64,000 nucleotides of DNA, taken from assembly GCA_965178125.1 (NCBI GenBank), contig OZ237762.1:558001-622000 (forward strand), written 5' to 3'. This DNA is from Bilabrum cf. latius. Lineage: Eukaryota. The notes under the pieces are model-generated. The model worked only from the letters and a program-made list of their open reading frames with translations. It searched no databases and was not told the DNA's origin. Position 1 is the first letter of the stretch. Each line of letters starts with the position of its first letter. This document shows, piece after piece, positions 1,476 to 55,200 of this stretch. The position numbers were made by a program, and so were the translations under genes.

Positions 1476-4400
1476 TTACGCCTCGCTCCCAAGCGATCGC
1501 ACCAGTGCCTGCATCAGATCGGTCGGAGCCACCGCCAGCCTGGGCCGGAACTCTGTGTCCACAATGTACAGCCGCTGCGCCTTGAGTCTCACAAAACCCT
1601 TCGCCACCGCCAAGAGACTGTCCGAGAGCCTGCACCTCCCCGCCAGCCAGCGCCTCTTTGTGCTGCGCTTCTGGCCCCTTTGCAGCACGCTCGCCATGCG
1701 GTTTACCTGGCCACTCGTCACACTCCCATGCACGCCCTCATGCATGGTGCGGACTCTGCTCCTGGGACTGCCACCGCCGCCGGGGGAGCTTGCATCGCTC
1801 ACCGAATCGTACTCGAGACCTTGGGGGTCCTGCCCCGGGCCTCTCCCAGCTTTCGATGATACCGCGCCTGCGCCCGCCCTTGTCTCCGCATCCCTCTTCG
1901 GCGTTGCAAGAAACTCGCCTGCTCCATCGGCGGTTGCACTCGCCCGAGTGCTCCGCATGCCCTTGCCGGCGTCCTCAGGCAATCTCTGGGCGAATGGCAG
2001 GCTGTGGGGATCGAACTCGCGATCATTGATCCCGAAGTACTGCGCGATGGGCATCCTGAGCCTGGCCAGGTCCTCTTCGCCCTTCACGCACGTCGCACTC
2101 AAGGTGGCACGGAGCCTTCCTCGGCTGTCGACCACCACCAGCTCCGGTCGTTTCTCGTTGTGCAGTCGATTTATCCCTTCAAGCACAGAGCTGTCGAGCC
2201 CTATGGTCGCTACAAGCGACGCCGATTTCTCCACGTCGATCACCTCAGATACGGGCAGCCGACCCACGTCGTACCAAGCAGCCCAATTGCCCACTAGTGC
2301 CTTGAGCACTGCGCTGAGAGTCAGCATCGCCACCGCAAAGCCGTCATCGTTGACGACTAGGATTCTCCTGTGGCCCTGCGCCAGCACCTGCACAGCGGTG
2401 GGAAGGCTTGCCGACCGAGCCACTGCCAGCACTGGCGACTTGCCGCTGAAGTTGATCACAGACTTAGCAGTCACGTCGCAGACAATTCGCTTGATCTCCG
2501 CCGATGCATCGTGCGCCTTCTCCATCCTAGCGGTCCCGAGGACTCGCGTGTCGGACCGACGAGGCAGCGAGGATGACGCAGAGGATCTGATGGATGATTC
2601 AGCAGCTTCGGGCTAACCCGCAGCAGCAGCTTGCTCTTCTAGACCTGGGGACTCCTTCCGCCCATCATGGTTGACTTGATGCTCAGCAGGCGGCCCTAGA
2701 TCTGCACCACCGCTCGCACCTATTCTTGCTCCTGTGCTCTCGCCTGTGGCTCCAGTGGGCCCTTCAGTGGGGCACCCATCCTCCTCGCCACCCTTGCTGC
2801 TGCCAGCATGCTCCACCATCGTGCCGGTGCTGCTCCCAGCCGTCCCTGCCCTGGCCAACTCGAGGCTGCCTGGTGCCCCACTACTCGTCACACCCTCCGC
2901 GACACCGCGTAGGCTGCTGGCCAGCGAAGTGCTTCCATTGCCCTGGCCCCTTGCAGCGGAGCCACTGTTTTCCAAAGCGCTTTGAACCCTGTGCCGGTAC
3001 TGCAGCGTGGCGGACTAACTCAAGAGATCCATGTTGGCGGCCTGCAGCTGCTTGATCACGTACATGACGATGTCGATGGCAGATGCCATGCCAACCACCT
3101 TGCACACTCGTGGCGTGTCATAAAGCTGGATCAGCTTTCTCTGGGGCGTCCTTCTGTGGATCAGCCTCGGGTTGGTCCACCGCAGGTACACCGGCCGGCC
3201 CTCCAGCATGACTCGGACCTTGGTCCCGGCTCTTCGCTTGCGACCAGCATCTCCTCGTCGGGCCCCGGAGCCGACAGGCAGGATGCCACCGTTGCCAGAT
3301 GGTGAACATATACCTGCCCCACTACTTGCATCAGCATACCCTGGTCGTGGATCTAGTCTAGCACCTGGCCCCACGCTCTCTTCATCTTCCTCTGCTCCTC
3401 CCATAGCCTTCTGCGATCTGCCGTCAACCGCCGCCATGGCTGCACCCCCCGGGAGCTCCAACAGCCCGGCGACTGGGTGCCTGCTCTAGGCTGCAGAAAC
3501 ATGCGCCCCTGGATCACTCTCCATCTCTGATGCATCGGACGCAGACAGTGAGCAGTCGGACTCTCCCCCACCCGCTCCCCTCCCATCGTCCAGGTCGCTC
3601 AGAGGGTCCTCCTCCTCAGGGCCCACAATCCTCTCACGCTCCGAATACACGGGACAGCTCACCACGTGCTTGTCTGACAGCAACGCAAGCATCTCGCCCA
3701 GCTTGTCTCCCGTGCGAAAGAAGGCGATGCCGGTCGGTGACCAGTCGCTCCCGATGACCGTGTCAACACGCATGAGGCTCCAATGGCACATTGGGCTGGA
3801 AATGGCCAGGACGAGCTTGTCTCGCCTTCGCGCCATCCTCGTGTGCCGGTCTACGGATGGAGTCAGGCACCCATTGAGCACCTGGCTCGTCTTGCAGATG
3901 TTGAATCGCCGCGAAATCTGCTGGGCCCTGGACTCGTACAGGGCGAGCGTGCTCTGGCCGGGGAACTCCTCGCCCTCGATTCCTTGCAGCTCGCTCCTGA
4001 CCGCCTGTATCTTGGCAGCGAGCACCTGCTGTATCTGAAGCAGCTGCACGTCATCCGGGATCACCCTGTCGCCGTGCGTTTCGAGCAACTCTACGATGTC
4101 TGCCATCCTCGGACGGTTGCTTGCCCGCGGCGCCCAGCACCGGGTCAGCAGCCCAACGAGCACCGGCGGCATGTTCTCGCACACAATGGGCCGGTACCCT
4201 TGCATGACGCGGTCGGCAATTTCCCTGTCGGTCAGGCTAAGTATCTCTGTAAATGGCAAAACTCGAGCAATCGCTTCCCACAGCATCACGCCAAAGGCAT
4301 ACGTGTCGACCGCCGTGGCAAACTCTGTGCTGACAGACCCGCGGTGTTGCTCCGGAGCCATATAGAACATAGTCCCTGTGCTGTACCCACCCTCATCCTT

Positions 4401-6603
4401 GTCTTCATCTACAAATGCATTGCTAAGCCCGAAATCGGACAGTACCCCCCCGAATGATCGGTTGATCAGCACGTTGGCAGGCTTGATGTCGCGATGCACG
4501 TAACCGTGTGTGTGAGTGAACAAGAGACCCTTCGCCACGTCAAGAAATACCCGACGAAGACGAGCAGCTGAGTACAGCTCGCCCTGGGATGTTCGGCTCC
4601 GACTAGAGGCAGCCGAGCTCGACGAGGACGGCGACGGCAACGCAACAGCTGCAGCTGATGCGCCTGCTGCTGCCCGCCCCCTACTATCTAGAACAAGCGA
4701 GGCAGGTCCATCCTTGCTGGCAAGCCGACTGCGCAAGCTGGCAATCCCGCCTGCAGCTGCGCCTCCATGCCTCCCTTCGTGCACTAGCTTGAACAGCGAC
4801 ATGGGGTAGTGCTCCATGACGATCATCATGCGACTCGACTTGCGCTCCTGGCATATCCCGAGCAGCCTCGCGATCTGCGGGAAAGGAAGTGAGGCCATGA
4901 CGTTCACCTCGGAGACGAACTCGTCAAGGTCCATTTCGTCCGCAAGGTTCGAGAGAATCTCCTTAATCGCCACAGTGGACTTTGCGTACTTGCCTTCGTA
5001 CACGAAGCCACAGCCGCCCCTTCCGATCCTGCGTGTCTTGGTAAGCATGTTACGGGGTATCACCACGATGCTGTGGTGCAGCCGAGATAGGCTCTTCTGC
5101 ACTGACTTCTTCTCCGCTAAGGTCAGCTGGGCATCCCGAATATGCCGCCTCCAGAGCTTGCTGACCTCAGGAGCCGAGGTGATGGTAGGCGGCGGGGGAA
5201 GCGGGTCGATCTGAAGGCTCGAGCTTTGTGGAGGCCCAAAACCTGAATCGTTACTGCCGTTGTCACTTATTTTCTGGTCAGCAGCTGGATCCTTGCCTGC
5301 TCCTGACGCCCCTGATGCTGCAGCTGAAGCCCCACCACCATCGCCCTTGCCGCCAGTTGCACCTGCCGCGCTGCTTGTCTTCACCTTTGCTGCAGCCTCT
5401 GCTTGCTTGGCCATTTTTTCTATCGTCCTATTTCTGCGCAACACTGCCAGCTCGTGTAGCTTTTGCTCAATGTACGGCGGCGGTCTGTCCTGACAGTACA
5501 GCCGCAGTGTCTGCCTCTCTCTGCGTCCGTCGATGCCCGCCAGGTCGATTTCCTGGTCGCCCACCACAGACACCTTCAGGCTGTCCAACGGAAACACGGC
5601 CTCTGGCAGGACGATGGGGTGGTACGGCGGTCTATCGCCTTGATGGCCTGGACCTGGCCTGGGTGCAGGTGGCGATGGTATTCCCAAGAAGCCCATGCCG
5701 CCGCCGCCGCTGCCACTGGCTGTGCTGCTGCTATTGCCAGAGAGGGGTCCGGGCATGCCTTCTAGTAGAGCTAGCTGGCGCTATACCTCCGCCGGCGAGG
5801 CGCCCGTCTCCTCGATCTCGGTCCGGAGGGCTGCAAGCTCGCTCAACTTCTTCTTGTGCTTGCGCTCCCAAGCGGCATTGCGAGCGGCTGCTCGCAGCAC
5901 CCAGCGCACATGTACCTCGTGTATGTCGTCCAGCGTGGAAGGAGGGGCGCAACCGCGGGCGATTTTCTCTGCGTCTCTGTGCTTTCGTCGACTGTTTCGG
6001 CTGTATTCTCGTTCCGAATCCATGCTCGCAATGAAGCCACTATCGACACCGGTGGCAGGGTCTGACAAAGACTTGCCACCCGTTGGAATGCCGAGATCCA
6101 TGAATAGGCTGCTTCCACCCGTTTTTCGCGTCCCATCCCTGTTTCTGTGTCCGTGGTCTGCTCGATCCGAATCTACCGTGCTGCTATCAGAACCGGCAGA
6201 AAGCCCCCCTTTCTCAGACACAAAATGGGTACTTGTCACTTGGACGATTGAACCTCTCGCTACTAGCTCATCATCTACCTGTTGGCCCGTTAGCTCGCCA
6301 CCAACTGGTTTCCGCGAGCTTCTTGTTTTGTGCTCGTGTAGACGTCGGACGACGCCGAGGAAACTGTCCGGATTCCAATAAACCAAATGTGTTGGCGTCA
6401 AGCAGAAGACCTTTGGAGACCATCGTAGCAACATAAAACTCTGCGATGGGCAAATAACATGGCACTAATATTGGTGCTGCGTAAATCTTCCTCATCTACC
6501 TACTAAGTAGGACATTAACGTGCAAACACACCTGTTTCCTAAGGATGCCATAGCACATCACCTTCTGATGACGGCTCGGCATGCCTATTCCTTCGGCATG
6601 CAT
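1476..6603 (-). CDS. Multidomain protein kinase: N-terminal PH domain, TKL-type kinase, C-terminal CBS repeats (~1,680 aa, 4 in-frame TAG; 5' end uncertain)
   Basis: ORFs 5781-6434, 3486-5756, 3015-3461, 2613-2975 and 1476-2525 share one frame. They are separated only by TAG (5781, 3486, 3015, 2613) and end at TAA (1476-1478). Kinase motifs: IGRGGCGFVY, VAIK, HRDIKPAN, DFG, YMAPE. CBS-like segments: LALLSDKHVVSCPVY...VVGMASAIDIV, HRRILVVNDDGFAVAMLTLSAVL, ELVVVDSRGRLRATLS. Removing a GT-AG intron at 6531-6441 gives VMCYGILRKQ|SFMLLRWSPKVFCLTPTHLVYW, a typical PH start. Confidence 0.85.
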
Positions 6604-7082
6604 CTCGCCAAAGCTCAAGATGTCTGCCCACCGCAAGGAGCGGCGCCGCGCACTATACTGTGGTGACCAGTTCCGCAAGTAGCAGCAGAAATCCAGTAGA
6701 CTACGCCCAAAATATTCTTCAGTATGTCTAATATTCCTTTATGTGCCGCTACCCTTGGTTTCGTACTTGCAACTTTATCGCAAGAAGGGAGGTGCTAGCC
6801 CATAACTGTGCGATACGGCGTGTTGGCTCCATTTGAAGACGGGCCACGACAGTCGTGCTTAGAGGGATATAGTGTGCTCAATGGGGTCCTAGCAAGATCA
6901 TCTGTGGTAGCAAATTGGTCTGTTACTCAGGCTGGAGCCTCTGTGAGTTCGTTGGCTTAATATCTTAATATGGTGCTATCGAGCACTGGTGCTGACGCAT
7001 CCTGATAGTCAATATCTCATGCCTCATTTAGTACTTGATCGTTACCGCCTTTTGAAATATCAGATGACTGCATCTATCACAG

Positions 7083-10000
7083 GTAGAGGTTGTCGCGCTG
7101 CCGGCCTCGACTCCATTCCAGGCTTGGGCATCTGCAGAGCAGTTCCTGTCAGTGGATCCATGCGCGACGACGCCTGCCAACGGCACATGCAACACGGTCG
7201 TCGGCGGGATCATCGGCGCCGGTACAACGGAAGCCACGGCGCATGTGCAGCTGCTCGCAGCTCGCCACTAGGTGCCACTGATTTCCTACAGCTCGTCAGG
7301 GAGCACCCTCACTCGCGGCATTGGCGGCAACGCGCACGACAGCGCCGACAGCATGCCGTACGCCCGCACGTGCCACTCCGATGCTCTCCTCGCCCACGGC
7401 GTGTGGCGGCTCCTCCGTCACTTCGGCTGGAAGCAGGTGGCCCACCTCCATGAAGAGAGCGAGGCGGGGCGCCTATTCTCGGAGAGCTTGCAGGAGACAA
7501 TCGAGGACGACGGGAACAGCCTCGTGCTCACCTCCATGCTCGGTTTCAAGGATCCCACGGGGCTCTTCGCCGCCTCTGCGTATGATCCAGCCGCAGGTGG
7601 TGGCGAATCATCGGCTTCTTCCTCCTCTTCCCAGTCGTCGTCCTCCTCGGGAGCATCCGTTGACGTGGACTACACGTCGATTGACAAGGCACTGGATGTG
7701 TTAAAGGAGCGGCCGACGCGCGTGGTCGTGCTGTACGCGGCACCGGAGATCGCGGCGGTGGTCATGCGCAGGGCCAAGGCCAAGCACATGATCGGGAGGG
7801 GATGGACCTGGGTGGGCACGGACTGGGTAAGGGAGTACACCTGGAACCACGCCTATGCCAGCGAGGAGGGCAGTGAGGAGAGCGCGATTGATGGCATACT
7901 GGAGGGCGTGGTGGGAGTGGTGCCCGCAGAGTTGGACGTATATGAGAGAAGGCTGCGAGTGGCGTACCCCGCGGTGGACCCCAGCTCCGGCGATGTCGTG
8001 CGCCCGCCCGCGCCGTCCACCGAGGACCCCTCTGGCACGACCGCCGTGAACTTCGACCTGCTCATACCCCCTGGCTCCGCCGGCATGCCCGAGCTGCCGG
8101 CTAGGGCCGCGTGCCCTGCACTGGATGCGTGCCCACCGGAAGGCTGCCTGGTCTCACCCGACGTGTTCCTGCCATTCGCCGAGGAGGCAGCTGACGCGCT
8201 CGTAGTCTCTGCAGCAAGCCTGCTCTCCAGTCCGTACGATCGGTCGGCCTCGCCGTGCCCCAGCGCCGTTGGGCCCCTCGGCGTGGGACACCCCGCACAG
8301 GACGGCGTCAACGCCCGTGTGTGCCCTGCAGACGTTGTCAGGCGCATGAGAGATGGTACCCTGTCGGAGCAGCCGGCACCCGAGAACACGGTGATCGCCA
8401 GGTTTATGCAGGACGGAGAGAGAGCCAATGTCCCACTGCACGTCGTCAACGTGGACAAGCAGCGCCCGAGGCTTGTCGCCACGTGGCGCAGCGACTACGA
8501 TCCCAGCGTACCGAGAAGCGAGCAGCCAGACGTGCGTTTCTTCGACGGCGACTGGAAGTTCACCGCCGACGTGGTGTGGCCCGGTGGCACCACCGACATC
8601 CCATCGGACCGGGCGATCGAAAGCGAGAGCAGCGCAGCGGTGATCGTGGCAGTCTTCCTCGCCGGGATTGTGCTCTCGCTGATCGTCGGCAGGTTCGGAC
8701 AGGAGCTGACGGGTGCCCTGGTACCAGCCAGTGGAATCACCATCCTGATCGGCCTGGCCTTTGGCGGTGTCCTGCGCGCCATCAGCGACGAAGAGATCTC
8801 CCAGCTCGCCACCTTCAACGAGAGGCTCTTCCTGCTCGCCTTCCTCCCGATCATCATCTTCCAGAGCGGGTACGCGCTGGACAAGTACCCCTTCTTCGAC
8901 CAGATTGCCTCCATCCTCAGCTTTGCATTCGTGGGAACCATCCTGTCCACGTTCGTTGTGGGCGGGGCGCTCTACGAGCTGGGCACGGCAGGGTACGTGA
9001 TGCGGTTGAGCTTCGAGGAGGCGCTTGCATTTGCCTCGCTGATCTCCGCAGTGGACCCAGTGGCCACCCTGGCTGTGTTCGAGCACCTCCGAGTAGACAG
9101 CTTCCTGCACTCGCTCGTGTACGGGGAAGCGGTGCTGAACGATGCCGTGGCGGTGGTGCTCTTCCGCATGTTTACGACTTTCATGCAGAGAGAGGCCACT
9201 GGCGAGGTCATCGGGGAGCAGGTGGGCATGTTCGTACTCGTGTTTTTCGCCTCTGTATTCATCGGGGTGGCATTCGGCGTGCTCTCCACTTGGGTGTTCT
9301 GGTGCGTGCGAATCTACGGAGGCGGGTACCTGACCGAGGACCCCAGCCGGCGAGGTGTGGACGAGCAGGCGCAGAGGAGGGGCGAGGAGGAGCGGTGGGG
9401 GCCCGTTGAAGTGATCACTGTCCCGGCAGCCCACCCGACGGGACGTGGCGGCATGGATGACATGGTCGCGGCTACTGCGGCCGCGGTCGACGCCGCTACA
9501 GGTGCAGGTGCTGCCTCAGCTGCCGGCGACGGCGCGGCAGCCGTGAGTGCAGACGACATCGCATTGGCACAGGCCTAGGGTGAGGCTGCAGGGCCAGGCG
9601 AGAACCCGCTGCGGACTGTGCCCTCGACCCACGACAGGGAGTGCTTCGGGTGCGTAGCGGGATGGCGCTGCAGGCAAGAGGACGCCAACGGGACAGTGCA
9701 AACGCTGCTGGTACTTCTTCTGTCCTTTGCGGCTTTCGCGCTCGCCGAATCGGTTGAGATGAGCGGGATTGTGGCGTCGCTGTTTGCCGGCATCACCGCC
9801 AACCACATGACCTGGCGGGTCCTGAGTCCTGCTGGTCGCAAGACATCTGGTGCGGTGTTTCGGATGCTTGCCAATGCGGCAGAGACTGCGGTGTTCTTCC
9901 AGGTCGGTGCCAACATCCCTCTGCTGGGAGGCAGCGCCGGTGCACCATTCATCATCGCCACGATCGCGCTGTGCCTGGGGGCCCGTGCCCTCCACGTGTT

Positions 10001-10709
10001 TCCGCTCACCCTCATGCTGAATTGCTGCCGCAAGAAGCCCATCAAATGGTCCCACAGCATGGTGATCTGGCACAGTGGCCTTCGTGGCGCGATCGCGTAT
10101 GCCACCTGCCTGCTCTTCCCCTCCCAGCACCGCGAGGAGATCGTCGTGGCGACCTCATGGACGATCCTGTTCACCATCTTCGTGCTGGGTGGGAGCACCA
10201 AGCCGCTTTTGGACTGCCTCGGGGTGGACCGCGAGGACAACAAAAAGATGCAGCAGCAAGCGTCCAACGCTGTCTCCGGAAAGCTCACGGCAGGCAGCAG
10301 CGGCGGCGGTTCTAACGAGTCCGGCTCTGACGACGTCCGGACGCGGCAGGGCAGGCAGGCCATGGCAGCCGGGATGCGGAAGCAGTCCTGGTTCATGGAT
10401 GTGATCGCACGCGTGGACGCGTGGTTGCGCGAAGCGATGCTTCCCGGGAAGGTGCCTGGGGCGCTCCGGCAGGGCGATGAGGCAGCGAGGGAGGCAGCGG
10501 AGGAGGCAGGTAGGTGCGGGCCCGCTGCGTGCTGCGTGAGCAGCGGCGGCGGCGGCGGCGGTGGTCCTGGCGGTGCGGGTGGCTTTGCAGGCATGGAGGA
10601 CGATGTGGAGGAAGAGAGGGACGGTGCGGCTGGGTCGCGGGGCAGCAGGGCCAGAGGTGGAAGGCGGCAGGAGAACAGGACGGAGGTTGGCGATGTGGAG
10701 ATGACTTGA
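7083..10709 (+). CDS. Fusion of an ANF-receptor/Venus-flytrap (type-1 PBP) domain to a CPA1 Na+/H+ exchanger (NHE8/NHX-like); upstream exon(s) not resolved
   Basis: One frame from a likely acceptor (cacag|7083) through TAG 7269 and TAG 9576 to TGA 10707-10709. VFT motifs: GGIIGAGTTEAT...H*VPLISYSS, LLRHFGWKQVA, RVVVLYA, MIGRGWTWVGTDW. NHE motifs: LFLLAFLPIIIFQSGY, FASLISAVDPVATLAVF, LVYGEAVLNDAVAVVLF, EMSGIVASLFAGI, WHSGLRGAIAYA, TIFVLGGSTKPLL. Confidence 0.88.
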
Positions 10710-10834: not shown

Positions 10835-12010
10835 TCAGCGATCAACTCCGCCGTCAGGCCGCACCTCCACTTGCTCTGGCGCGCCGCTCCCTTCGGCTGG
10901 ATTGATGACACTGCTGCCAGCAATCGTGGCAGCAGCGGACTTGCCATCGCTACCCGGAGCCAAACTCGCACCTGCCTCCAGGCTCTGCTTTTCTTCCTTT
11001 TCCTACTGCATAATGCCGTTGTCCCTTCCTGGATTGCCAGTAGGACCAGCCCCGTCCCCGTCCCCGCCTACGCCCCGCTGCACTTCATCAATGGCCAACA
11101 AGAGCCAGGCAGGCAGCTCGACGCTGGCAGTGCCAGGAGCGCCTGTGTCGCTGCTGTTGCCAGCTTTAGCATCTGCATCAGCCTATTTCACGTCTCCGTG
11201 CGTGCTCCACAGCGGTCTAGCAACCGTCCCATCCCGCTCATCCCTTCTCATTCGAAGCTCTTTGGAGGCAATGAGGTGGGCAGCTCCCATTCCGCCTACA
11301 GAACGATCGGCAGGAGCATTGAAGTCGGCACCCCTCGTGCGAAATTCCTCGAGCAGTGAGATGCACGCAGGTCTTCGTGCGCAATCTATCGGGGTGAGGT
11401 GTGCAGCGGTTTCACCTGCGCGGTTTTTTGCGGCCGGGTTTGCACCTAATCTCAGAAGCTCATCCGCGGCTTCAAATGCCCCTAAATCCATGGCAAAGTG
11501 AAGAGGGGTATCACCATCATTTCCTTGAGCCGTTGGGCTGGCCCCTGCGCCAACAAGCAATGCAATCACGGTCCTATTATTAGTTGATGTTGCCCAGTGG
11601 ATTGGCTGCGAACCCGCAGAGTTTGTCACACCAGCCGAGAATGCCCCAGACTCCAAGAGCAGCATAATTACTTTGATGTTGCCTCCCTTTGCAGCCCAAT
11701 GCATAGCATTGTTACCGTGCCGGTCCGATAGCTCGCTGCACCCTACCAAATCATCGGCAAGGAACTCCCTAACGCGGTCCTCGTGCCCTTTGTAGCACGC
11801 ATACAAGAATTGTTGGTCTGTTGAAAGTACACCAGCAATCTCTACAGCAATAACAATCGCGATAAGTAAGGATGCGCACAGCCAAATACACGAGCAAGAC
11901 CGCAGCGCTCCATCCGCCCCATCAGTGCTTGTTTGCCTCTCCTTGCTATCCTGAGGTAACTTGGAGGAAGTCGTGTACTTGTCATCGTCTTCAAGAAAGT
12001 CATTAGTCAT
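10835..12010 (-). CDS. Single-pass membrane protein with ankyrin repeats
   Basis: ATG at 12010. A hydrophobic helix (IWLCASLLIAIVIAVEIAGVL) is followed by ankyrin repeats (GNNAMHWAAKGG, GSQPIHWA, GDTPLHFA, GETAAHL). The frame continues past TAG 11183 and one more TAG to TGA at 10835-10837. Confidence 0.8.
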
Positions 12011-12287
12011 GGCTATTTGTTGGTCATGGCGTGCGGCTGGCAAGATCTTTGAGCCGGCGGCTCGTCACGCTGCGCCTCTCAGGCCGGGCTGTGCAGTCAC
12101 GGTGGGGTGTGCGCGCATGCCTTTCTAGCCTGCGTGCCTTCCAATACGCTGCCTTTCCCGTAGCGACGCGCCACAGTACTCGATGACTCAATCGCTGCAA
12201 CAAGAGATAGGCGTGGTAGTATTGGCACAGGGAGAGAGTCTCGTTTTAGTCATTGCAACACTTGAGAAATCGCGCCCACTCGCGCGA

Positions 12288-18172: not shown

Positions 18173-19228
18173 CAAAATAGACTGGCCGCCAAGCAGGGCA
18201 AGGTAGTCGAACTGATCTAGTCAGTTCGCCACGGTGCCACGTGCAAGGACAAGCGTGTCTGCGGAGGCCTTTCAGGCCGCAGGCACTTCCGGGTGCTCAA
18301 CGTGCTCGAGCAGGTGGTCCGCGAGGCCACGGGCAGACGCCCTATCCGGGAGCCAGAGGGCCAAGTGGCCCGGCTGCCGGGTCGGCGCGGTCCGCTCGTG
18401 CCACGAGGCGACCTGTTCTTTGAGCACGAGGGGACGGCTTATCTCATCGATGTCACGGTGGTTGATTCCACTGCGGCAACTTACCGGTGGGACCGCTCGT
18501 CGTGGAGGATTGGCAGCGACTGGCAAGAGGGGTCTGCTTTGCGGGCCGCGCATGCCACGAAGCTGGCCAGCTACGGCAGGCCCGTCGACCTCGGAGCGCT
18601 CGGCGTCCGGATCGGAGGAGAAGACAAGTGGTGTCCTGGGACCATGAGGACGCAGAAAGGGGCGGTACGCAGTGGCGTGCGGGTCGTACCCTTTGTGGTG
18701 GACGTGTTGGGGGGAATCGGGGAGGAGTCGGTCGAGTTCCTGCAGGTGCTCGACAAGTTGCGGAAGAAGAGGTAGGAGGACAAAGGGCGGCGACTTTCGA
18801 CTCGTCAGGCCAACGCACGCCTCTCGTGGTCTTCTGTGGCAAAGGCTCGCCTCTCCGTTGCCGCCTAGCACCAGCACGTGCGCGGGGAACAGCGTGTGTA
18901 CCACACTATGTACTCACGGGTCATGCAGGACCACTCAAGGATCCTCGATTTTGTCTCGAAGGGATCGAGGAGGGCTGCAGCGAAGGCCAAACGGGCGCTC
19001 GCAAGGGCGGTCCGGGAGGACTTTGCCAGCCTGGCTGTAGGGGCAGCCGAAAACAACAACCTCGCCGTGGCGATCGCCAACGTCAAGGCAGGGTTGGCTC
19101 AGAACGGGCAGCAGGACGGGGTGCCGGCAGCGGGCGCCGGAGGGAACGTGAACGCTGACGCTCCCCAGGGGGAAATGGGTCCCCAGGGTGGAGCTTAGGT
19201 GGTTTAGGCCATTGCAGCTGAAGCGTGA
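18173..19228 (+). mobile_element. Restriction-like endonuclease (RLE) C-terminal region of a CRE/R2-type non-LTR retroelement, no RT visible
   Basis: 351-codon frame between TAA 18170 and TGA 19226, interrupted only by TAG. Motifs: HGATC...RRHFRV (end of a zinc knuckle plus RH), GDLFF...LIDVTVV, AAHATKLASY, VVPFVVDVLGGIG, RLSVAA*H. Confidence 0.7.
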
Positions 19229-22615: not shown

Positions 22616-24831
22616 ATGGGTTTGTTTACCTCGGCAAGCAAGGCATGGCATGGAATCAAAGGGTGGATTCATGATCAAGTGATGTGGCTGCTCATCGGAC
22701 AGTCGATCATCTACAATATGGTTAGATATTTGTTGGAATGTGCCCTGAGGCAACGTGGATCAATGTGTGTTTGCTTTCCGTAGCTCCAACAAATGTAATG
22801 AAATGGACATCAAGGATAACTACTTGCTATTTTCTTGCCTGCCTATCGTGCTTCTCTCGGCGAGATGGAGCGCTTCGCAAAGCATTATTCCAGTTGACCT
22901 GCACCAGACACCTCATGCTTTTCTCGGCCACTTTTGGATCGCAGAGCTGGGAAGATCCACGAATCGACCACGAGCTATTTAAGTTTAACGGAAGCGACGT
23001 TATCGTAACGTTGACCTCGGCAGGAGACCAGGTGCTCGACTACCTGCTGGCGTCGCCCAAGAAGGTAATCTCCGTGGACCTCAACGAGCGCCAGAACGCC
23101 CTGCTTGAGCTCAAGCTGGCATCCATCCGCGAACTTTCGTACGAAGAGTTCTTCGCCATCTTCGCTTCGAGCGACGGCGACGTGTTCAAGAAGAACTACC
23201 AGACCAAGCTCCGCAAGCACCTGACGGCCAAGAGCAAGGCCTTCTGGGACGCGAACCAGACCATTTTCGACAACTACTTCTTCTGGTCCGGCGCGTGCGG
23301 CAACCTCGTGCGCTACGGCATGCTTGTGATGCGCTACGTCTTCGGCCTGAACGGCCTCCTGGACGAGCTGGAGCACTGCGAGTCCTTGGAGAAGCAGAGG
23401 CAGATTGTGGAGCAGTACCGCGGCCGGCTCGAGAACGTGTACTGGTTCCTGCACGCGACGAGCAGGCTTTGGGCGCCCTTCATCGCCGTGCCCGCCTCTC
23501 AGCTTGACCTGTACGAGGGCAACATCATGAAGGAGGCCCTGGACTCTATCCTGAGCAAGACCCACCTCGCGTCTGACAACTACTTCTTCTTCGGGCAGTT
23601 CTACGGGTACTGGACCAAGGAGTGCTGCCCTAGGTACCTCAAGGAAGAGCATTGGGACACTCTCGTGCGCAACGTGGACCGCGTGGAGGTGCACCACGCC
23701 CTCCTGGGCGAGGTCATCGGCAAGTGCCCCGACAAGAGCATCACGTGCATGTCGCTGCTCGACCACATGGACTGGATGTCCGATGAGATCATCCTGGATT
23801 GCTTCAAGGACTACGTGAAGAAGCTCGCCCCCGGCGCGCGCATCTTCTGGCGCAGCTTCAGCGACTTCCAGCACATCGCGCCCTTGCAGTACCTCCACTT
23901 CCACCAGAAAGAGGTGGAGCAGGTCATCGAGGAGAACCCCGACCGGGTCATGATGTACAAGAAGACCTTCTTCGCGACCGTGCCCGACGAGTTCGATGTG
24001 CTCCCCCGCACCAAGTACGAACCCCAGGCGACCATCACCCAGGACCTCAGCGTGCTCTTCAACATGTACGTCAAGCCGATCTCGGGGACCGACCACAAGG
24101 CCCGCCTCGAGAGCTTCTACGAGAACCAGAAAGACAACTACGACGTGTTCAGGCACAGGTTCCTCCACGGCCGCTGGCCCATGGCGTGCGCCATGCCCTC
24201 CCCCAAGGACGCCGTGTGGGTGGACATCGGCGGCGGCACGGGCAGCAACCTCGAGTTCTTCGGCAAGGAGGGCATCCGCAACTTCAAGCAGGTGTACATC
24301 CTGGACCTCTGCGAGCCCCTTTTGGAGGTCGCCGAGAAGCGCGTCAAGGCCAACGGCTGGGAGGACAAGGTCAAGTGCGTCATGGGAGACGCGTGCGACC
24401 AGTCCCAGGACGGTGCGGAGGGCAAGCTCCCCGCACCCGGCACCGTGGACGTCATCACCTTCAGCTACTCGCTTACCATGATCCCCGATTGGAAGGCTGC
24501 ATTGGACCACGCCTACTCTCTCCTCAAGCCCGGAGGCATCATCGCCATCGGCGACTTCACCGTCACCAAGCAGCACAGCTGGTTCACCCGCAGCCTGTGG
24601 CCCGCCATCTTCAGCCTGGACGGCATCAAGCTCTCCACCGAGCACATTCCCCAGCTGGAGACCATGTTCAAGCGCCTGGCCTGCAAGGTGCGAAGGGGGG
24701 GGTTCCCCTACCTCAACTGGATCCCCTTCGCCCAGTGCCCGTTCTACCATTTCATCGGGCAGAAGCCCGGTGGCAAGCAGTTCGGACCCAACGGTGACAC
24801 GGACAGGATTCCCCCCCTGGACGTGGAGTAA
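22616..24831 (+). CDS. BTA1: Betaine lipid (DGTS) synthase: BtaA/DUF3419 domain followed by BtaB SAM-methyltransferase domain
   Basis: Exon 22616-22720, GT-AG intron 22721-22944 and exon 22945-24831 join as IIYNM|SWEDPRID. BtaA motifs: LTSAGDQVLDYL, VDLNERQNALLELK, DNYFF, LLDHMDW, IFWRS. BtaB motifs: HKARLESFYENQ...YD, WVDIGGGTG, ITFSYSLTMIPDW. Ends at TAA. Confidence 0.9.
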
Positions 24832-46220: not shown

Positions 46221-49200
46221 TCATCTGAAATATATCCCATTTGGATTTGAGTGACGGTAACTTTGCCATTTTCGAGGGCATAAGACCAATTTCTTGCGGT
46301 CGGATCGGGATCCGATCCTTCACCTTGAGCGGGTAATCCGGGTGCGCCCGACGTGCGACCCTTATCTGATCTCGGAGACCTCATCCATATGGATTGATTC
46401 TGATCCTGATTGAACTTTAAAGCTTGGAATTTTGATAACGAATTGCCGAATCGGATGGAGTTCGCTTTTAAAACCGAAGCTTACTTGGTTACGCACGCAA
46501 TTTGGTGAAAATGTAGAATTGCAAGCTGTACGGAATCCCTTTTCTACCATAATTCAAAGAATGCGTATGGCGGCACTTAGACCACCTGGCTCTGCGCGAC
46601 TCTAAGCTATGCCCCCCTGATCATCTTCTTCCGAAGCAGCGGCAGGTTTGGCCTGCTTCACCTTTGGCTTCTATTCGCCCGGGCCTGCCTTGAGAGGCAC
46701 GTACCGCCTGATCTTGTCAGCCGCAGCCTCGAACTCCGCAGCAGAAGTCTTGCTCAAAGAGCCTTCCGCGTCTGCTGACGAGTCGCTGACGAGTCCCGCC
46801 GACTCGGCGATCGGACGGTATCCGCTCTCAGCTGGAGGAGGGAATGACACAGGATCCTTCGGGCCGCCGAACGCCAGCTTAGCTGCTACTGTCTTCACGT
46901 CCAGTGACGTTATGCACGGGAAAAGTCCCTGAAAGCCCGACATGCGCAGCGCCGCCTGGCGGACATCCCATGCATTCTCGTACTTCTCCTCGTCAGAGTC
47001 CTTGCTCTCGCCCTCGCCCAGACTGGAGGCCCCTGGACCCTGCTCTCCCGGACCGGCTGCGCTAGATGCAGCCGCATCAGCCGCACCATCTTCCACCTCA
47101 GGCGCACAACGGACCACTGCCATGCGGCCAGTCACGTCTGCAAAGTCGCCATTGAACACGAATCGCATCTCGCGCTTGTCCACGTCCACCATCACCGTCA
47201 CCACGTCACCCTCCGTCCAGGTCTTCCACCGCTTGACCTGCTTCTTCTCCTTGCCACCACCCTCGCCGCTCATGGCTCCAGTGGCAGATGTGACGTCAAA
47301 GATTGCACCAGCATCAGCACCGGCGCCAGACGCAGCCCCACCAGCAGCAGAAGCAGCAGCTTCGTCGCCGTCTGCGTCGGAGCCGTCCTTGCCCGAGGCC
47401 TCCTTCTTGTCCTCGTCGTCCTCTTCGTACTCGATTGGCCTGCAGTTCTCCGTGTCGTCCTCGTGCCAGAACCTACCAGTCGTCCCTTCCAGACCCCAAC
47501 TAGCGGCGCATGTGCCTGTCGCCCATGCGTACTTAACGGACGCGTGGAACCCTGCCTTGGCCCATCCAAGAATGGCAGGCCCGTCCGCCTCGATGCTGAC
47601 TTCGTAAAACCACTTGCCAGAAGAGACTGACACAGAGCTCTGCGTGGCTGCAGCCATGAGTTGAGAGTTGCTGACCAAGGTCCCGTCAGTATCTACGAAC
47701 CCCAAACTCGAGTTGGTGACTGGCCTGAATCCAAGACTGTCAGACTCCTCCTTGCCCTCAGTGGTTCCCATCGTGCTCACCCCACGGCGCAAGACTGGAG
47801 CTCCTAGGTCAGCTCCGGTCGCAGCTCCACCTGCTGCTGCCTCGCCTTCCTCCAGCCCCTGGCACACCACCGCCTTCGCCTCATCCGCACTCACTCGCAG
47901 CGCCTGAGTCACAGACGGACGCAGGCGCACGATCAACGAGTACACGCTGCGGATGGGAGAGCCCCGGCCCGCAGCCACCGCCAGCGCCATCTGCTCCTTG
48001 TTCTCCTTGTCCCACGTGCCAGGGTGCATGATGTCGGGGACCTGCAGGGCAGGGGGGCCGTACTTGAAGGGCTTGGTGCCAGTGTTCACACGTAGAGCGC
48101 ACCCCTGCCGCACAAAGAATGCTGGCCGGAGCCCGTGCGACCCAGACAGCACCTTGCGGTACGCGATGCCTTCGGACCAGTCCCCGTTCACGGCGAATGC
48201 GACTGTGCCCTGGTCCAAGTCGATGACGGTGCCAACGACGTCGCCTGGCTTGCCCCAGTCCTTGCCATAGGCCGGGCCCTTGGATGTACGGAAGCTGGGC
48301 TCAATGCGGGACGACACCCACGTGCCATCATGCTCGGAGCGCGAGCTCGCCTGAGTGGAAAAGTCCACCGTGATGTTGCTAGATGCCATTGTATTCCATC
48401 GCTGCCCATATCCTACAGTGCCGTTGTGCATCCAGCCGATGCTCATGTCGAACACCTTGGAGTAGCCGGGCTGCTCTCCGTCATACTTTTGCTGAGCTTC
48501 CTTGCGGGCCTTGTTGATCTTCTTTTTCAGCTCCTTGCTGGCTCCAGGCAGTTCAACAGCTTCCACCTCAAAGAACCAACGACCACGGAACAGCTGCACA
48601 CCGGCCATGATCGCACCAGATGCCTTGCCCCCATCTTCGCTCTTGTTGCACACGATTTCACCATCAATGATGTCCGTGGAATCGTCCCCGCTCCACGACG
48701 GCACAATGCGACCCACATTGTATGCCGAAGCCTTCAGTACCATACGGGAGCTCGTCGCGTCAAGGATGCGCACAGTCGAAGCGGCTTGGCTCGGTGGCGG
48801 ATACTTGAACGACTTCTTCCCAATCGTCCAGCGGAAAGCCGACATTGATGACACAGACTTCGCGATCGTCAGCGCGCCGTGGCTCTACAGGGCCTCAGAC
48901 ACTCCCTCCACGAGCGCATCACATGCCTCCTACCCGTTCACATAGAAATGCACGCTCTTCCTGACCGTGTCCACAGCCATGCCCACCGTATCGCCGATCT
49001 GTAGCGGGCTCACACGGGCTACCTCATCACCCTCAGACAGAATCGCCCCGTCCGTCCGGATGCACCACGTGCACGCCGCATCGCCCACGCCAATGCACCG
49101 CCGCGCTGACCCGCGGAAGTTGATCCCGCTCACACCCACGCGACCCAGCGGCCCATCCGGCACTGACACTCCGCCCACCGCATCCGGGCCCCACGTCTTC

Positions 49201-52200
49201 TTGGCTGCTTTGACCTTGGAAGCAGCACGGACAGCTGCTGCCGCCTGCTCTGTGCACAAGACGGTCGCTTCCGCAAAGAAGGTTCCGGCATCAGGCTTCA
49301 TCGCAAGACCACGCTGCGCAACTGTCACAAGCTCGGCCTCAGCGTCACTCACAAACAAGTATTCATACCCAGTAAGGGAGCCTCCACTCGTGGCCATGGT
49401 CTTGGCAAGTGAATCCATCGTGCGCATGCACATCAACGGCGACTCTTCCGGCGAGTAGCTCTCCTGCCGGCGCAGCGACAGAGGCATGAACTGCTGCTTC
49501 TCTCCTTCTGCAGCAGCATCCTCGGCTGCCTTTGCTTCCGCTTCGTCCAGTCGATCCGCAGACATCTCGCCAGACGCCACCAGCTCCACTGCCTGCTCCG
49601 CAAGCTGGGCTTCCAGCGGACTCACGCTCGATGCAAGACCCGCCAGAAGCGCTCGAGCAGTCACATCTTCCTGCATGTCCATCGCCAGCCGGAACTTCAG
49701 ACGCGCCCCGATCTACTCGTCGGCTCCCCGCCGCAGTCGCGCCACAGGGTCCTCCTGCCCGCCCTCCCCGCCATCCACCTCCGATGGCTGCATGTCAAAC
49801 AGGTTGCCCAGCTCCTCCATGGACAGCTGCCCGTCCCCGTTCGAGTCCGCCCGACGCACAACTGCGCTCAGGTCGCGCAATGACAGCTGCTCCATGCCCA
49901 GCGACCCAAGGCCTGCCTGCAGATGCTTGGGCTCGAGTGCCATGGACCGATCCGTGTTGAAGGCAGCGAAGGCCTCCTCAATGGAGCCGAAGCGAGCCTT
50001 GACTGCTTCGCGGATACGGGTCACCACACCCTCAGTCCGCAAGAAGGCCTTCTCGGCTCGGAGTGACAGCAGCGGGGCAAGCACCGTCTCCTCCCACGAC
50101 GGAATGTCGCGACGACGACCACGAAGATTCTATTCAAAGAACTCTCTCCTTTGGCTCGTGGTGTTGTCGTGCAGCAGCTGATGCAGGGCTCGCATCTCGG
50201 CAAGCGTGAATGACACCCGGTTGTCCACGAAGCGACACACCTGAGCCAGGCCCAACAGCGAATGCACGTCCTGCGCACTGTCGCCCTTCACCACCGCGCG
50301 TTCATCGCTCTGCGTCGATGGCGCAAACACCGCGTCCAATGGGAATCCATTTATCGTGTACAGTCCCACATATGCCCGAGACACAGGATCCACCTTGCCC
50401 TGCAGCACATCGCTCGTCAGAGCCGCGATGTCATCCTGGCCCACATGCAGAGCCCGCCGCAGAGTCTCTGCTTCCGCCAGTGACACCACCATTACCAGGT
50501 CACGCAACTCAGGCCCGCTCTTCCCAGCAGCCGCACCATCTGCCTCCGTACCGATCAGCGCAGCCACCTTCGCCGCATCCAGCTCCTGACCCGGTGGCGG
50601 GATCAGCCGAAGCACCACCTCCATGTTCTTCAGTCGCCGCGGCAGAGTGGTCGGGGCCGACAGCTCCGTGTGGTTGTCAGACAGCCACAGCCGATGCCCG
50701 CCCTCCACGGTCAGAGCGCCTGCCGATCGCGAGAAGCGGAACTGGTCCAATGGGTAGAAATCACGTTCTTGCAGCAGAGTGGACGGCTGCCGCAGCTGAT
50801 GCATGGCCCACGCTCGTGCGGCCGTGGACCTGTCGGCAAACTGAGATTGCTTCTCCTTCTGCATCTGCACCTCCCTCTGCCTCTCCTGCTCCTTCTCAAG
50901 CATCAGCTCCGACTCCTGCTCCACCTGAGCCACGCACTGCTTGTCGAAGTCAAGTCGTTTGCCGCCGGCCTTGCTCGGCGCTGTACTCTCAGCGTCATGC
51001 TCGGCCTTGCCTGCCTCCGCCAGCACGGCCTGCACCTCTGCCTTCTGCTTGTCCGTCTGGATCAAGCTCGACCACGCCTCTAGCTCCTTGGTCAGCCGCT
51101 GCACGAACGTCTCAGGCGCCTCGATCTGAGCCCCGATGGAGCTGTCCAGAGGATCCATGAACGCCTTCATCGACTGGCGGACGGTGTACGCAATGGACGA
51201 GGCCTCCTTGTCCTAGGCAGCCTTGAGCGCTTCCGGCGTCACTTCGGGCACTTCCTCATCGAAGCCCATCTTCTTGGCTTTCTTCTCCCTTTCCTCCTCC
51301 TCCTTCTTCTTGGCATCGCTCTCAGCGGACTCCTCCTTCTTCAGCCCTCGCTTGCGCAGGGCAGCCTCTTTCTCCATCTCCTTCTCATGCGCCTCCCGCT
51401 TCTCTCTCGCCCTCGACTCATGCAGCTCGTGGTTGTCTAGCGTGGAGTCAACGCCGGTTACCCGGAATCGGATTCGCAAGGCCCCGCGCCTAGGCTGGAG
51501 CACCAGCGAATACATGTCGAAGCGACCGCATGAATACCCATACCCGCCAGCCGGATGCCTCGAGGACACAAGATTGCGCAGTGCCTGCCGTCGCCAAACG
51601 AACGACATGCGCTGAGCGCACAGCTACATGTGCTGCAGCTGCTCAGATCGGATCGATGCAGCCAGCAGCCAAGTCACGATGTGCTCAGGCTTCGTGCGAC
51701 TGGCACTTGCTCCTGCAGACCCAAGCATGTGCATGGCGGCCGCGGCTGCACTACTGCTTCCCTTGTCCGACTTGTCTGCATGCACCGCCCGACGCACCAG
51801 CCGAGACACTTCAGGCACCACCAGCACAGTCAGCGTCTGGCCCACACCCAGACCACGCATGCGCCACGACCCCTGCGCAAGCTCGCGCAGTGTCATGTCC
51901 TTGCCCAGCGTCACCGCCGCGCGGGCGTCCATCACCTGCGGACAGTCCGTGCCCGTGGCATTCGTCTGGTTGAAGAACGTGAAACGCTCGCTGGGCTCGA
52001 TGCCGCACTGGTCCAGCTGAATACCTTCATTCGACCCGCGCATCAGCACCATGTGTCGGCCCACGTCATCGAAGTACACCACGCCCTGCATACCCTCCAG
52101 CCCATGCTCCAGCAGGTATGCAGCCACTTCCTAGTTCGTCATGCCCGTCACCAGAGCGCCCACGTCGATCAGCGCGTGGAACCGGGGCTTGGCCGTGGCG

Positions 52201-55200
52201 ATGGTCCTCAGGATAAACTGAGAGTCCCAGTCGCCTTGCAGATCCATCGTGGAGATCACAGACGGGTTTGTCAGAGTGCGCACGATCTTGGCCTCGCTCC
52301 CAGGCTCAAAATCGCAAGTCATGCCGGTGGGCAGCAGGTCCGATGTGGTGCCTGAGAAACCCAGCCGCTTCTCGAACAGCATGTCACTGCCCATATCAAT
52401 GCCGGATGCCATGAGCTTCTGCTTCTGGTGGTTCATCACCTTGGGGAACACATGGTTCAGCACGAAGTGGTCCACCACCGCAGGCACGTCTCGAAGAGCC
52501 GCGAATGCAGCCGCCATCTGCTCCTGGTCGGTGGGCTGGAACAGGGGCAGCGGCAACACAGACAGGGCAGCCTCTCGACGAGCCCTGGCGCGGCGCTTGC
52601 GCTTCTGCACGTTGAGGTCGCTGGCGCTCTGCTGGCGCCGCAGCTTAGGCGGACCTCCAGACGATGATCGACGCATGAGTGACGCGCTGGACACTTGGCG
52701 ATCCGTGGCTGGTGCACCCATATCATCGCGATCATCCGTAAGCACCGAGGCTTCACGGGCCATACCGGGCGCCTCCTCACCCTCGAAATCACCAAGAGCA
52801 GCGTCTAGCCATGACTTGAACTTCACCGCAGATGGCCGCTTGTCAGGGTTGCCTGCCTCGTACATCAGCGACCGCTTCATCTCCTTCAACATCACGCTGC
52901 AGTCCTCCTTACGAAGACCCTCGTACCTGTACGCCAGCACCGCCAGACCGATCAGCACCTCGGCATGCGCAAACTCACTGCTCTGCGATGGCGAGTCCTT
53001 ACCCACGAATGGCACCGCGAGCAGCAGCCGGCTTGGAGGCTCCTTATGCTGTCCCTTCGCACCGGCCTCCAAGGCTGCGATGTCTCCGGGCTGCAGCAGC
53101 CCGTAGCTCACACGGTCAATCTTGCTGATCACGTGCGCCGTAAACACGTTGCACCATGCCCGGCCCAAGTTGATCAGCCGCAGCACAGCTGGGCCCAGCT
53201 CACGATTCAGCATCTTAGCCTCCTCCGACTCCTCCGAGGCACCCAGCAGCACAGCCTCCACGGCCTTCTCCTTGCGGGTAAACTCACCCTCATCCACGCC
53301 GCCACCAGACGCACTTCCAGGCGTCTGTCCGTCCTCGGTGTCGTCACCGTCACCCTGAGCCTCGCCCTCGCCCTCGCCCTCCAGCTCAGGTGGCTTCGTC
53401 ACGTAACCCACCTCCGTGGCATAGTTCAGGTCACGCCGCAGCCAGAACAGCAGCCAATGAGCCAGGTGAGGCTTGATGTCCTCGTGGTAGTAGTCCTCGT
53501 CCAGCAAGATCAGATGCGGGTTCACCTGCAGCGCGTACTGCCGGACACCCCTCCGCAGAGCCTGCTGCAGGGACCGAAGCGTGCTCATGGCGTCTGATGC
53601 CTCCAGCGGATCTGCCTCCAGCTTCCCGATCAGGTCCAGGAATGACATGCCCACGCTCTGGTAGCCCTGCTTCTCGCTGCCACCCTCGAGCCCACTGCCT
53701 TCAGACCCGACAGAAGACATCTTGCGGGCAGCAGCAGCAGGCACGTCCAGACTGCCACCGGCCGCTGCCTCGGCATCGGCACCCCCTGCAGACCTGTCCA
53801 CCTGCACGCCCATTGTCACGCACGATAGGATCGCGTCAATGATGTGCAGCGGCAGTCTCCACCGATCCGGCGACAGCTCCAGAGGCCGTTTGGGTCCGAT
53901 GGGGAAGTTCAGCTCGGACAGCATCGGATTCAATAGTAGATCCACCTCATCCAGCAGCACCACACCCGTGCCTGCCTTGTTGCTGTCTGCCTTCACCACG
54001 GCCTGCGAAGCGGCTCCATCTCCAGCGCCCGCCCCAGACGCAGCCGTCCCATCGCTGGGCTGCACGCCCAGGCAGTGCAGCAGCTCGGCCAGCAGGTCAG
54101 CTGCCTTGGCAGTGGCTCGCAGCCTGGCCGCCTCATCAGCTGCTTTGCTCCTGGACCTGGTGGACTGGAAGCTGGCAGGCGACTTGAACACCTCCGGGGG
54201 CGCACTGCGCACCTCGTGCATCATGTCGAGGTACTGCAGCATCACGCACTTGATGGACTCGGGCGTGGTTGTAAACACCCCACAATCTCGCCGGGCAGAT
54301 TGGGCAGTCTCCACCAGGTTGGTGAGGTAGATCATCCACTTGTTGAGCCTTCGCGCGGACTCGAGCGCCTTGAATTGGACCGCCGCGCCCTCCTTGCCGA
54401 ACCGCTTGGTCATGAACTTGTGCCTTCTCTGTCGTGCCTCGTTGAGCTTGCGGGAAATCTTGTTAATCTCCTCTGTGCTTCCGAGTCCCAGCCTTGCCCG
54501 GAGATTGGCCTATTTCAAGATCTTGAGCTCCTCCGCCGTAAGCACATCCTCTGGCCGCGAGCTGAGGCTCTTCAGCTTTGACTCTTTCTTCTTGTCCTGT
54601 CCAGTCTTTTCGTCCCCTGCTTTGCCTGCTTTTAGACTATCATCTGATTTGCTCTCGCTTGCACCAGCGCCTGATGCTGCATCACCATCATCTCTCTTGG
54701 CTTCCCCCTCCTTGCCATCTTCAACATCGGACCCGGCGTCATCCATTTCATCTGCAAGCTCCTGCATCATGAGCTTGTCAGAATCCTCGTCCATTGCCTT
54801 CATTGGAGGCAGAGCGAATCGCTCAAACTGCAGAGTCACCACGCGCCGACCCAAGATGGTGGACAGCGACCGAGTCAGGTGCATGCGGGACATATCAGTC
54901 AGCGCGGCAGGCACCACCGAGGTCACCACCTGCGACCCGTCTGCAAGGATCGCAGACAGCAGCGGGTTCAAAGCAGCCGACTTGCCAGATCCCATCAGGG
55001 CCTGGATCACTCGGTTGCCCGAAGGCTCTCTCACGCGCTCCAGGAATTGGTGCACCATCTGTACCTGCCGAGGCCACAGCACGAAGCCGCTCAGGAACTC
55101 AAACACCAGGAAGCACGGGTTGAACGGCTGGCCGGCCTCAGGCAGATAGGTCCTCTCTGCTGCAAGCACGGCTGCAAACTTGTTGGCGGCAATACCAAGC

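Follow-up and report, generated by a model that had tools for sequence, protein, structure and literature searches.

The gene described here lies on the forward strand of a 64,000-nucleotide (nt) stretch of Bilabrum cf. latius DNA (contig OZ237762.1, positions 558,001 to 622,000; hereafter the window, with positions counted from its first letter). It encodes a Venus-flytrap (VFT) domain joined directly to a Na+/H+ exchanger of the CPA1/NHE type. This VFT-NHE fusion is real and is the product of one spliced gene. We lean towards the view that Na+(K+)/H+ exchange by the protein is under the control of a ligand on the non-cytosolic side; the ligand, the location of the protein and the regulation itself are what we infer. 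This view is supported by the folds of the two halves, the spliced gene model, 33 other fusions, their position on one side of a branch, the co-varying identities of their two halves and the fixed spacing at the junction. Further support comes from the pocket anchors, the FP[ST]x[HN] loop, the electroneutral CPA1 motif and the ordinary NHE paralogs of the host.

One spliced gene for both domains

The original prediction had seen a VFT domain and a CPA1 exchanger in a single frame, and Pfam searches bore this out (ANF_receptor, E = 2.8e-19; Na_H_Exchanger, E = 4.8e-51), with both matches exceeding the cut-off. Its start at 7083 had to be moved, as this is really the start of exon 2: an upstream exon (6724–6942) gives the Met, a stretch resembling a signal peptide and the first strand of the VFT. 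Together with the intron 6943–7082 and the exon 7083–10709 (+), it makes up a gene of 1281 amino acids (aa) when spliced. The signal peptide was called by eye and from the similar N-termini of homologs. The frame 7083–10709 has 1208 codons to a TGA, with in-frame TAGs at 7269–7271 and 9576–9578; in the spliced model, TAG stands at codons 25, 136 and 905. The TAG noted earlier at 9576 is thus present, but it is not the only one, since the gene has three (6796, 7269 and 9576).

The 140-nt intron was predicted from the sequence first, and the exact joint of 6942 to 7083 was then seen in a contig of run X1. This contig (record 2) starts at 6717 and has 226 letters on the shorter side of the joint. 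Another X1 contig (record 5) is unbroken from 7817 to 10676 with zero differences, and takes in the C-terminal half of the VFT, the junction, all of the exchanger and the 9576 TAG. The continuity of this RNA-like contig through 8600–8700 and 9576 speaks against separate transcripts for the two halves. X1 is labelled 'RNA? (probably DNA)' and none of the runs is recorded as RNA; we read it as containing cDNA because two GT–AG introns are skipped and the listed pieces end between genes. Records 2 and 5 overlap by just 19 nt and the whole gene is spanned by no single contig. The joint of exons 1 and 2 was visible in one of the four runs compared, with X2 and X3 giving short fragments only. On these data the gene is apparently expressed. 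The insert between transmembrane helices (TM) 7 and 8 was ruled out as an intron, as it is not skipped in X1.

The window is part of a 48.6-Mb eukaryotic assembly (G000:C28) having many dynein heavy-chain matches, and the host is therefore probably a flagellate. No second copy of this VFT was found in a search of the host genome, where the VFT-NHE gene is single-copy. Ordinary NHE and SOS1-like paralogs are present besides it, and the ordinary NHEs could cover housekeeping exchange. The sole further ANF_receptor match in that search was a 2951-aa protein (G000:C41, L020 407–9265, −) with three tandem bacterial-type periplasmic-binding protein (PBP) domains, Cys-rich ephrin-receptor-like repeats and a multi-pass membrane region.

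Reading of TAG in the host genome

The two halves of the exchanger had been thought to be joined by TAG read-through. This part of the original prediction falls away, as TAG is an ordinary sense codon in the host genome. In the window, frames of 6865 and 5814 codons with 33 and 26 TAGs, closed only by TAA or TGA, appear once TAG alone is read as sense; reading TAA alone or TGA alone as sense yields no such long frames. We examined 218 TAGs in 16 dynein segments, calling a column conserved if 60% or more of the remaining paralogs agree in it. Conserved columns held 36 of these TAGs, opposite Gln (19), Glu (9), Arg (3) and others (5); the control codon CAG gave 66% Gln by the same test. Between the two giant paralogs of the window, TAGs in high-identity surroundings are mismatched with CAG (three times), CAC (once) and GAA (once), and the TAG at 7269 aligns with a Gln of mGlu2.

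A guessed sequence pattern for a CUA tRNA matched nothing, and an Rfam search (63 of 780 candidates scored) found a tRNA gene with a CTA anticodon at G000:C23:907607-907679. Among the tRNAs fetched, its nearest were Tyr (50 identities) and Gln-TTG (49), so it does not appear clearly derived from tRNA-Gln. From these comparisons TAG seems reassigned, being sense in every long gene examined, and is best read as Gln. The conserved Gln columns, the closure of the frames and the CUA tRNA are what NCBI genetic code 15 (UAG = Gln; UAA and UGA stop) entails, and the host code agrees with that table as PMC11687900 describes it. Local stop-codon read-through was rejected on the long TAG-bearing frames, the Gln columns and the CUA tRNA. 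Leu and Tyr were rejected as well (0 of the 36 conserved columns), and Glu is less likely, with 9 of 36 columns against 19 for Gln.

The reassignment cases given in PMC11687900 are ciliates and Iotanema; TAG = Gln in this host may be a further independent one. We observed here a TAG = Gln nuclear code in a GC-rich flagellate, seemingly accompanied by a mitochondrial genome: G000:C111 carries a cluster of tRNAs, one of them with the anticodon TCA, and is probably a mitochondrial genome with TGA = Trp.

The exchanger half and its junction with the VFT

The exchanger belongs to CPA1/NHE by its PF00999 match and its NhaP/NHE 13-TM fold. Its sequence matches NHE9, NHE6 and NHE1 (E = 1e-49 to 1e-44), and residues 517–1050 of the model superpose on NHE1 with Z 45.9 and a root-mean-square deviation (rmsd) of 2.3 over 406 aligned residues; NHE3 and SOS1 also match. 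As stated in the original prediction, its acidic motifs are intact, with the Asp of VDPVA at 9054–9056 and GEAVLNDAV beginning with Glu at 9126. The full CPA motif, A-V-D-P...E..ND...R, is present with Glu5, Asn6-Asp7, Arg8 and a non-polar position 1, the last of which PMC6181914 associates with the electroneutral CPA1 type. The CPA motif persists throughout the family, as do the GE..ND, DP and GLRG-type motifs in the fusions checked. The loop between TM12 and TM13 carries the motif FP[ST]x[HN] in 28 of 29 fusions vs 2 of 111 proteins outside the clade; it is altered in P0010 and P0201, which lack the VFT, and kept in P0186 and P0265.

The WPGG...IPSDR motif described earlier was located at 8577–8612. 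From PxDR to TM1 the spacing is constant and without insertions or deletions in 30 of 30 members; as members were cut at PxDR, the presence of the motif reflects selection but the spacing does not. The first exchanger helix aligns from NHE1 residue 98 on. For NHE1, PMC8190280 describes an N-terminus outside, a TM1 that lies both at the dimer interface and in the inward ion funnel, and a pre-TM8 loop inside. Because the NHE1 N-terminus is outside and the first helix is aligned with that of NHE1, the VFT should face the outside or a lumen, and by the same analogy the TAG-bearing insert is predicted to be cytosolic. The loop between TM7 and TM8 that holds this insert is enlarged in 19 of the 32 members that could be measured, at widely varying lengths, and 13 of 32 have no insert. 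Docking of the VFT against the exchanger in the homolog P0003, for which the alignment was not used, scored 0.00 and gave no evidence either way.

The Venus-flytrap half

The expected PBP1/VFT fold of the N-terminal domain was recovered, with Z of 26–28 to the GLR3.4 amino-terminal domain (ATD), GABA-B and LivK. An AlphaFold2 model built on a 30-row alignment had a pLDDT of 75 and a pTM of 0.74; the VFT folded without an alignment reached a pLDDT of 33, and that model was not used. Residues 1–512 matched GLR3.4 (Z 28.2), Drosophila GABA-B (Z 27.3) and LivK (Z 26.5), with rmsd 3.1–4.0 and ∼340 residues aligned for GABA-B. Membership in the VFT/type 1 PBP class follows from the PF01094 match and from Z of 23–28 to GABA-B, GLR, LivK, mGluR, NPR-C and T1R. 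The VFT joins TM1 without a cysteine-rich domain of the type seen in G-protein-coupled receptors (GPCRs) in between. A Cys is common to 27 of the 30 VFTs; this and the hydrophobic N-termini of most complete-looking homologs agree with an extracellular or luminal VFT.

Alignment with mGlu2 points to four putative pocket positions, which are amino-acid anchors in mGluRs. For the first Ser, this role is supported by PMC3703292. In the family, these positions are S/T in 22 of 28, S/T in 20 of 30, aromatic in 15 of 30 and D/E in 18 of 30. The present protein keeps all three polar anchors (T, S and D) and has Ala in place of the aromatic residue. By these alignments the pocket seems partly maintained, and diversified across the family.

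A family of VFT-exchanger fusions

Sequence and profile searches gave 33 other database proteins with both Pfam domains (8 + 25). A single-sequence search contributed 8 among 120 listed of 299 matches. A profile search of 1.84 billion representatives contributed 25 of 40 proteins scanned (chosen from 150 rows by length or match start), 24 of them above the curated VFT cut-off. Three further N-truncated fusions were recognised with a custom VFT profile, while word-seeded searches using the family alignment or one VFT added none. Two of the 29 clusters checked name EukProt organisms, Platysulcus tardus and Picozoa sp. COSAG05; one holds fragments filed as Symbiodinium sp. KB8, while the others are labelled at most NHE/NhaP.

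In an exchanger-only FastTree (159 rows), a branch with support 97 had all fusions to one of its sides (29 fusions + 20 others). The same split had support 96 in a quick IQ-TREE run with the C20 mixture (50 rows; 19 fusions + 6 others); both supports are SH-type. Five rows with fewer than 300 aligned columns were left out of this run, P0153, P0175, P0218 and P0227 (fusions or fusion fragments) and P0168. In both trees the fusion side lies apart from animal NHE8-like proteins, NHE1–5 and the ordinary NHEs of the host, so that orthology with NHE8 or NHE1–5 was not found, in a sampling biased to matches of the fusion profile and including no NHE6/7/9 by name. The non-fusions on this side are fragments or seemingly VFT-less proteins. 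We speak of a clade on the assumption that the root lies elsewhere: a root on the SOS1-like long branch fell within the fusions, unsupported.

Pairwise identities of the VFT and NHE halves co-vary among 26 proteins (rho 0.61; 0 of 2000 permutations), the means being 25% for the VFT and 42% for the exchanger. The simplest reading of these sequences would be one old fusion with later losses of the VFT, the alternative being transfer between lineages. Other exchangers with N-terminal extracytosolic modules were also seen (P0266, P0269 and P0191); two proteins on the branch beside the VFT fusions have NPC1_N (sterol-binding-like), and another has EGF-like repeats.

Proposed mechanism and competing explanations

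We propose that VFT-NHE would be a membrane protein of the secretory pathway, whose exchanger, electroneutral for Na+(K+)/H+, would be governed by a VFT lying outside the cell or in a lumen. The VFT would close on a small molecule, the likeliest being an L-amino acid or something closely similar, and the fixed-length PxDR stalk and/or the family-specific TM12–13 loop would relay this closure to the elevator, switching exchange on or off. The relay could pass through the stalk–TM1 dimer scaffold or through the loop on the outer side of the moving core. Either the cytosol or a vacuole would then change in pH or Na+, which might serve, for instance, to sense prey or to mature a food vacuole. Beyond the two domains being intact and held together rigidly, on the appropriate side, all steps are ones that we infer. 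The suggestion of a ligand-regulated exchanger or transceptor made in the original prediction is consistent with the topology, the conserved junction and the partly conserved pocket.

Several observations weigh against ligand gating. The three polar anchors occur together in just 10 of 30 members, the aromatic lid kept in 15 of 30 is Ala in this protein, and those VFT residues that never vary belong to the structure or the junction, none coming from the pocket. The VFT is attached to the scaffold helix TM1, away from the moving core. At the position of NHE1 S263, this protein and 10 of 29 fusions have Ala, as do 3 of 111 proteins outside, and PMC8190280 calls this ion-ligating Ser critical. 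PMC4381896 lists it among the binding-site residues, and for PaNhaP the equivalent change is reported to be without significant effect (PMC4381880). Because that change was harmless, Ser-to-Ala leaves exchanger activity possible. Finally, the VFT-less P0010, P0201 and P0186 are nested in the fusion clade, and the VFT may thus be dispensable to the exchanger.

The incomplete pocket, complete in just 10 of 30 members, and the VFT-less relatives are also what one would expect if the VFT were a ligand-independent accessory, serving dimerisation, trafficking or luminal pH or ion sensing on a constitutive or cytosolically regulated exchanger, in the manner of GABA-B2 and many ionotropic glutamate receptor (iGluR) ATDs. 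Most of the conserved columns are structural, and the fold comes closest to an iGluR-type ATD, with GABA-B less than 1 Z behind. Nevertheless, 22 of 28 keep the first pocket Ser/Thr at a mean VFT identity of 25%, and three of four anchors remain in this protein; we consider the accessory role unlikely, though worth keeping in mind. The long, variable cytosolic insert (19 of 32) and the loss of the ion-site Ser in 10 of 29 fusions would suit a transceptor, in which the ligand signals through the TM7–8 insert or the C-terminal tail to partners and exchange is secondary or dispensable. We find this improbable, as the fusions checked retain the GE..ND, DP and GLRG-type motifs like active exchangers, and the insert is very unequal in length and absent from 13 of 32.

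In TRAP and in ABC systems with a fused substrate-binding protein, such a protein feeds the transporter, and organic solutes are carried by other transporters of the exchanger fold. The VFT could likewise be a tethered substrate-binding protein delivering an organic solute, with the protein transporting the ligand itself, and the match to the type 1 PBP LivK (Z 26.5) fits this. The canonical NHE cation motif, the close superposition on NHE1 (rmsd 2.3 over 406 residues) and the very short stalk make it a very improbable explanation. The idea that the fusion is an artefact, whether two neighbouring genes, an assembly error or a pseudogene cut short by TAG stops, could draw on the 19-nt overlap of records 2 and 5, which leaves the gene without one complete RNA-like contig, and on the label of X1. 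It is largely refuted, and we give it next to no credence: all of the long genes examined use TAG as a sense codon, record 5 crosses the junction without differences, and there are 33 independent fusions.

Relation to known systems

With the eukaryotic NHE/SLC9A proteins (NHE1, 3, 6, 8 and 9), VFT-NHE shares the 13-TM fold (Z 40–46) and the DP, E..ND, R and GLRG motifs, and its best sequence matches among solved structures are NHE9 and NHE6. Unlike them, it has an N-terminal VFT of ∼560 aa, a branch of its own, the FP[ST]x[HN] loop and, in this member, the ion-site Ala. SOS1 and KefC are exchangers regulated by a fused sensor domain. In the sperm NHE SLC9C1, the exchanger is gated by a fused voltage sensor and a cyclic AMP-binding domain (PMC10620092). 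The fused sensors of these three exchangers operate from within the membrane or the cytosol. The ligand sensors of SLC9C1, SOS1 and KefC are C-terminal and cytosolic, whereas that of VFT-NHE is N-terminal and non-cytosolic by prediction, following a signal-peptide-like stretch.

The VFT fold, including its C-terminal stalk, is like that of GABA-B and other class C GPCRs (model residues 1–512, Z 27.3), and in GABA-B, too, no cysteine-rich domain stands between the VFT and TM1. In VFT-NHE, a 13-TM exchanger takes the place of the 7-TM G-protein activator as effector. Pfam gave no match of VFT-NHE to 7tm_3 (PF00003), only to ANF_receptor and Na_H_Exchanger, and the protein falls outside the class C GPCRs. 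Venus kinase receptors, receptor guanylyl cyclases, iGluR/GLR channels and Entamoeba EhVFT similarly have VFTs on differing effectors, none of them a secondary transporter. A Venus kinase receptor is described as binding L-amino acids through a conserved Ser (PMC3703292), and EhVFT as influencing phagocytosis in a protist (PMC12965686); unlike VFT-NHE, EhVFT is anchored by glycosylphosphatidylinositol, without a transmembrane domain. By analogy, VFT-NHE may work like SLC9C1 with its sensor moved outside, or like a Venus kinase receptor with a new effector. In line with the earlier statement that no characterised VFT-NHE was known, we found no description of a VFT-exchanger fusion in the titles and opening abstract lines of the papers listed by searches of the open-access literature, subscription journals and supplements lying outside this scope. 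The receptor-exchanger architecture is conserved and apparently undescribed.

Features of the gene and its surroundings

Features of the VFT-NHE gene in the window
Feature	Position	Strand	Remarks
Exon 1	6724..6942	+	ATG; signal-peptide-like aa 1–24; TAG (read as Gln) 6796–6798; first VFT strand ITVRYGVLAPF; Cys
Intron	6943..7082	+	140 nt; GT..AG (GTGAGT..CAG); phase 0
Rest of VFT (type 1 PBP)	7083..8612	+	PF01094; TAG (read as Gln) 7269–7271; two low-confidence loops; phmmer matches to mGlu2 and GLR3.4
Putative pocket anchors	7227..7823	+	Thr 7227–7229; Ser 7296–7298; Ala 7464–7466 (Tyr in mGlu2); Asp 7821–7823; from mGlu2 alignment
Junction, WPGG...PSDR and ∼8 residues to TM1	8577..8636	+	P, D and R invariant among VFT columns
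13-helix CPA1/NHE exchanger	8637..10220	+	PF00999; Asp 9054 (DPV); Glu 9126; Asn-Asp 9138–9143; Arg 9984; GLRG 10077–10088; FPSQH loop 10116–10130
Low-complexity insert, TM7–TM8	9306..9659	+	∼120 aa; TAG (read as Gln) 9576–9578; pLDDT <50; cytosolic by NHE1 topology
C-terminal tail, predicted cytosolic	10221..10709	+	Ends in TGA; record 5 of run X1 extends to 10676

Upstream and divergent from the VFT-NHE gene lies a gene for a protein kinase with a CBS domain (1476–6598, −), with ∼120 bp between the contig ends; its intron at 6441–6531 is spliced in X1 and X2. An ankyrin-repeat gene (10835–12064, −) is convergent with the VFT-NHE gene. Further along are a 351-aa frame without a Pfam match (18173–19228, +), part of which seems to resemble the end of a non-LTR retrotransposon that carries the restriction-like endonuclease, and a gene combining DUF3419 with a methyltransferase (22675–24831, +), the layout of the betaine-lipid synthase BTA1. 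The giant paralogs are intronless and lie tail to tail at 25623–46220 (+) and 46554–64000 (−). They are 6865 and more than 5814 aa long and 79% identical, with near-identical blocks alternating with diverged ones, and have DUF3638, DUF3645, EF-hand and SPRY domains.

Implications

If gating by the VFT is true, VFT-NHE would be a new receptor class. It is quite possible, though we stop short of calling it probable, that such a class is ancient, being common to a basal stramenopile and a Picozoan, with an amino acid, outside the cell or in a food vacuole, directly gating a secondary-active Na+/H+ exchanger and pH as the first output. A transporter would then join the GPCR, channel, cyclase and kinase among VFT effectors, with an elevator gated from outside via a scaffold helix, and the NPC1_N-exchanger fusions of the neighbouring branch would widen this to a set of lumen-sensing exchangers. 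VFT-NHE could also serve as a template for ligand-controlled pH tools. For microbial eukaryotes, it would mean a one-protein path from the detection of nutrient or prey to the control of pH.

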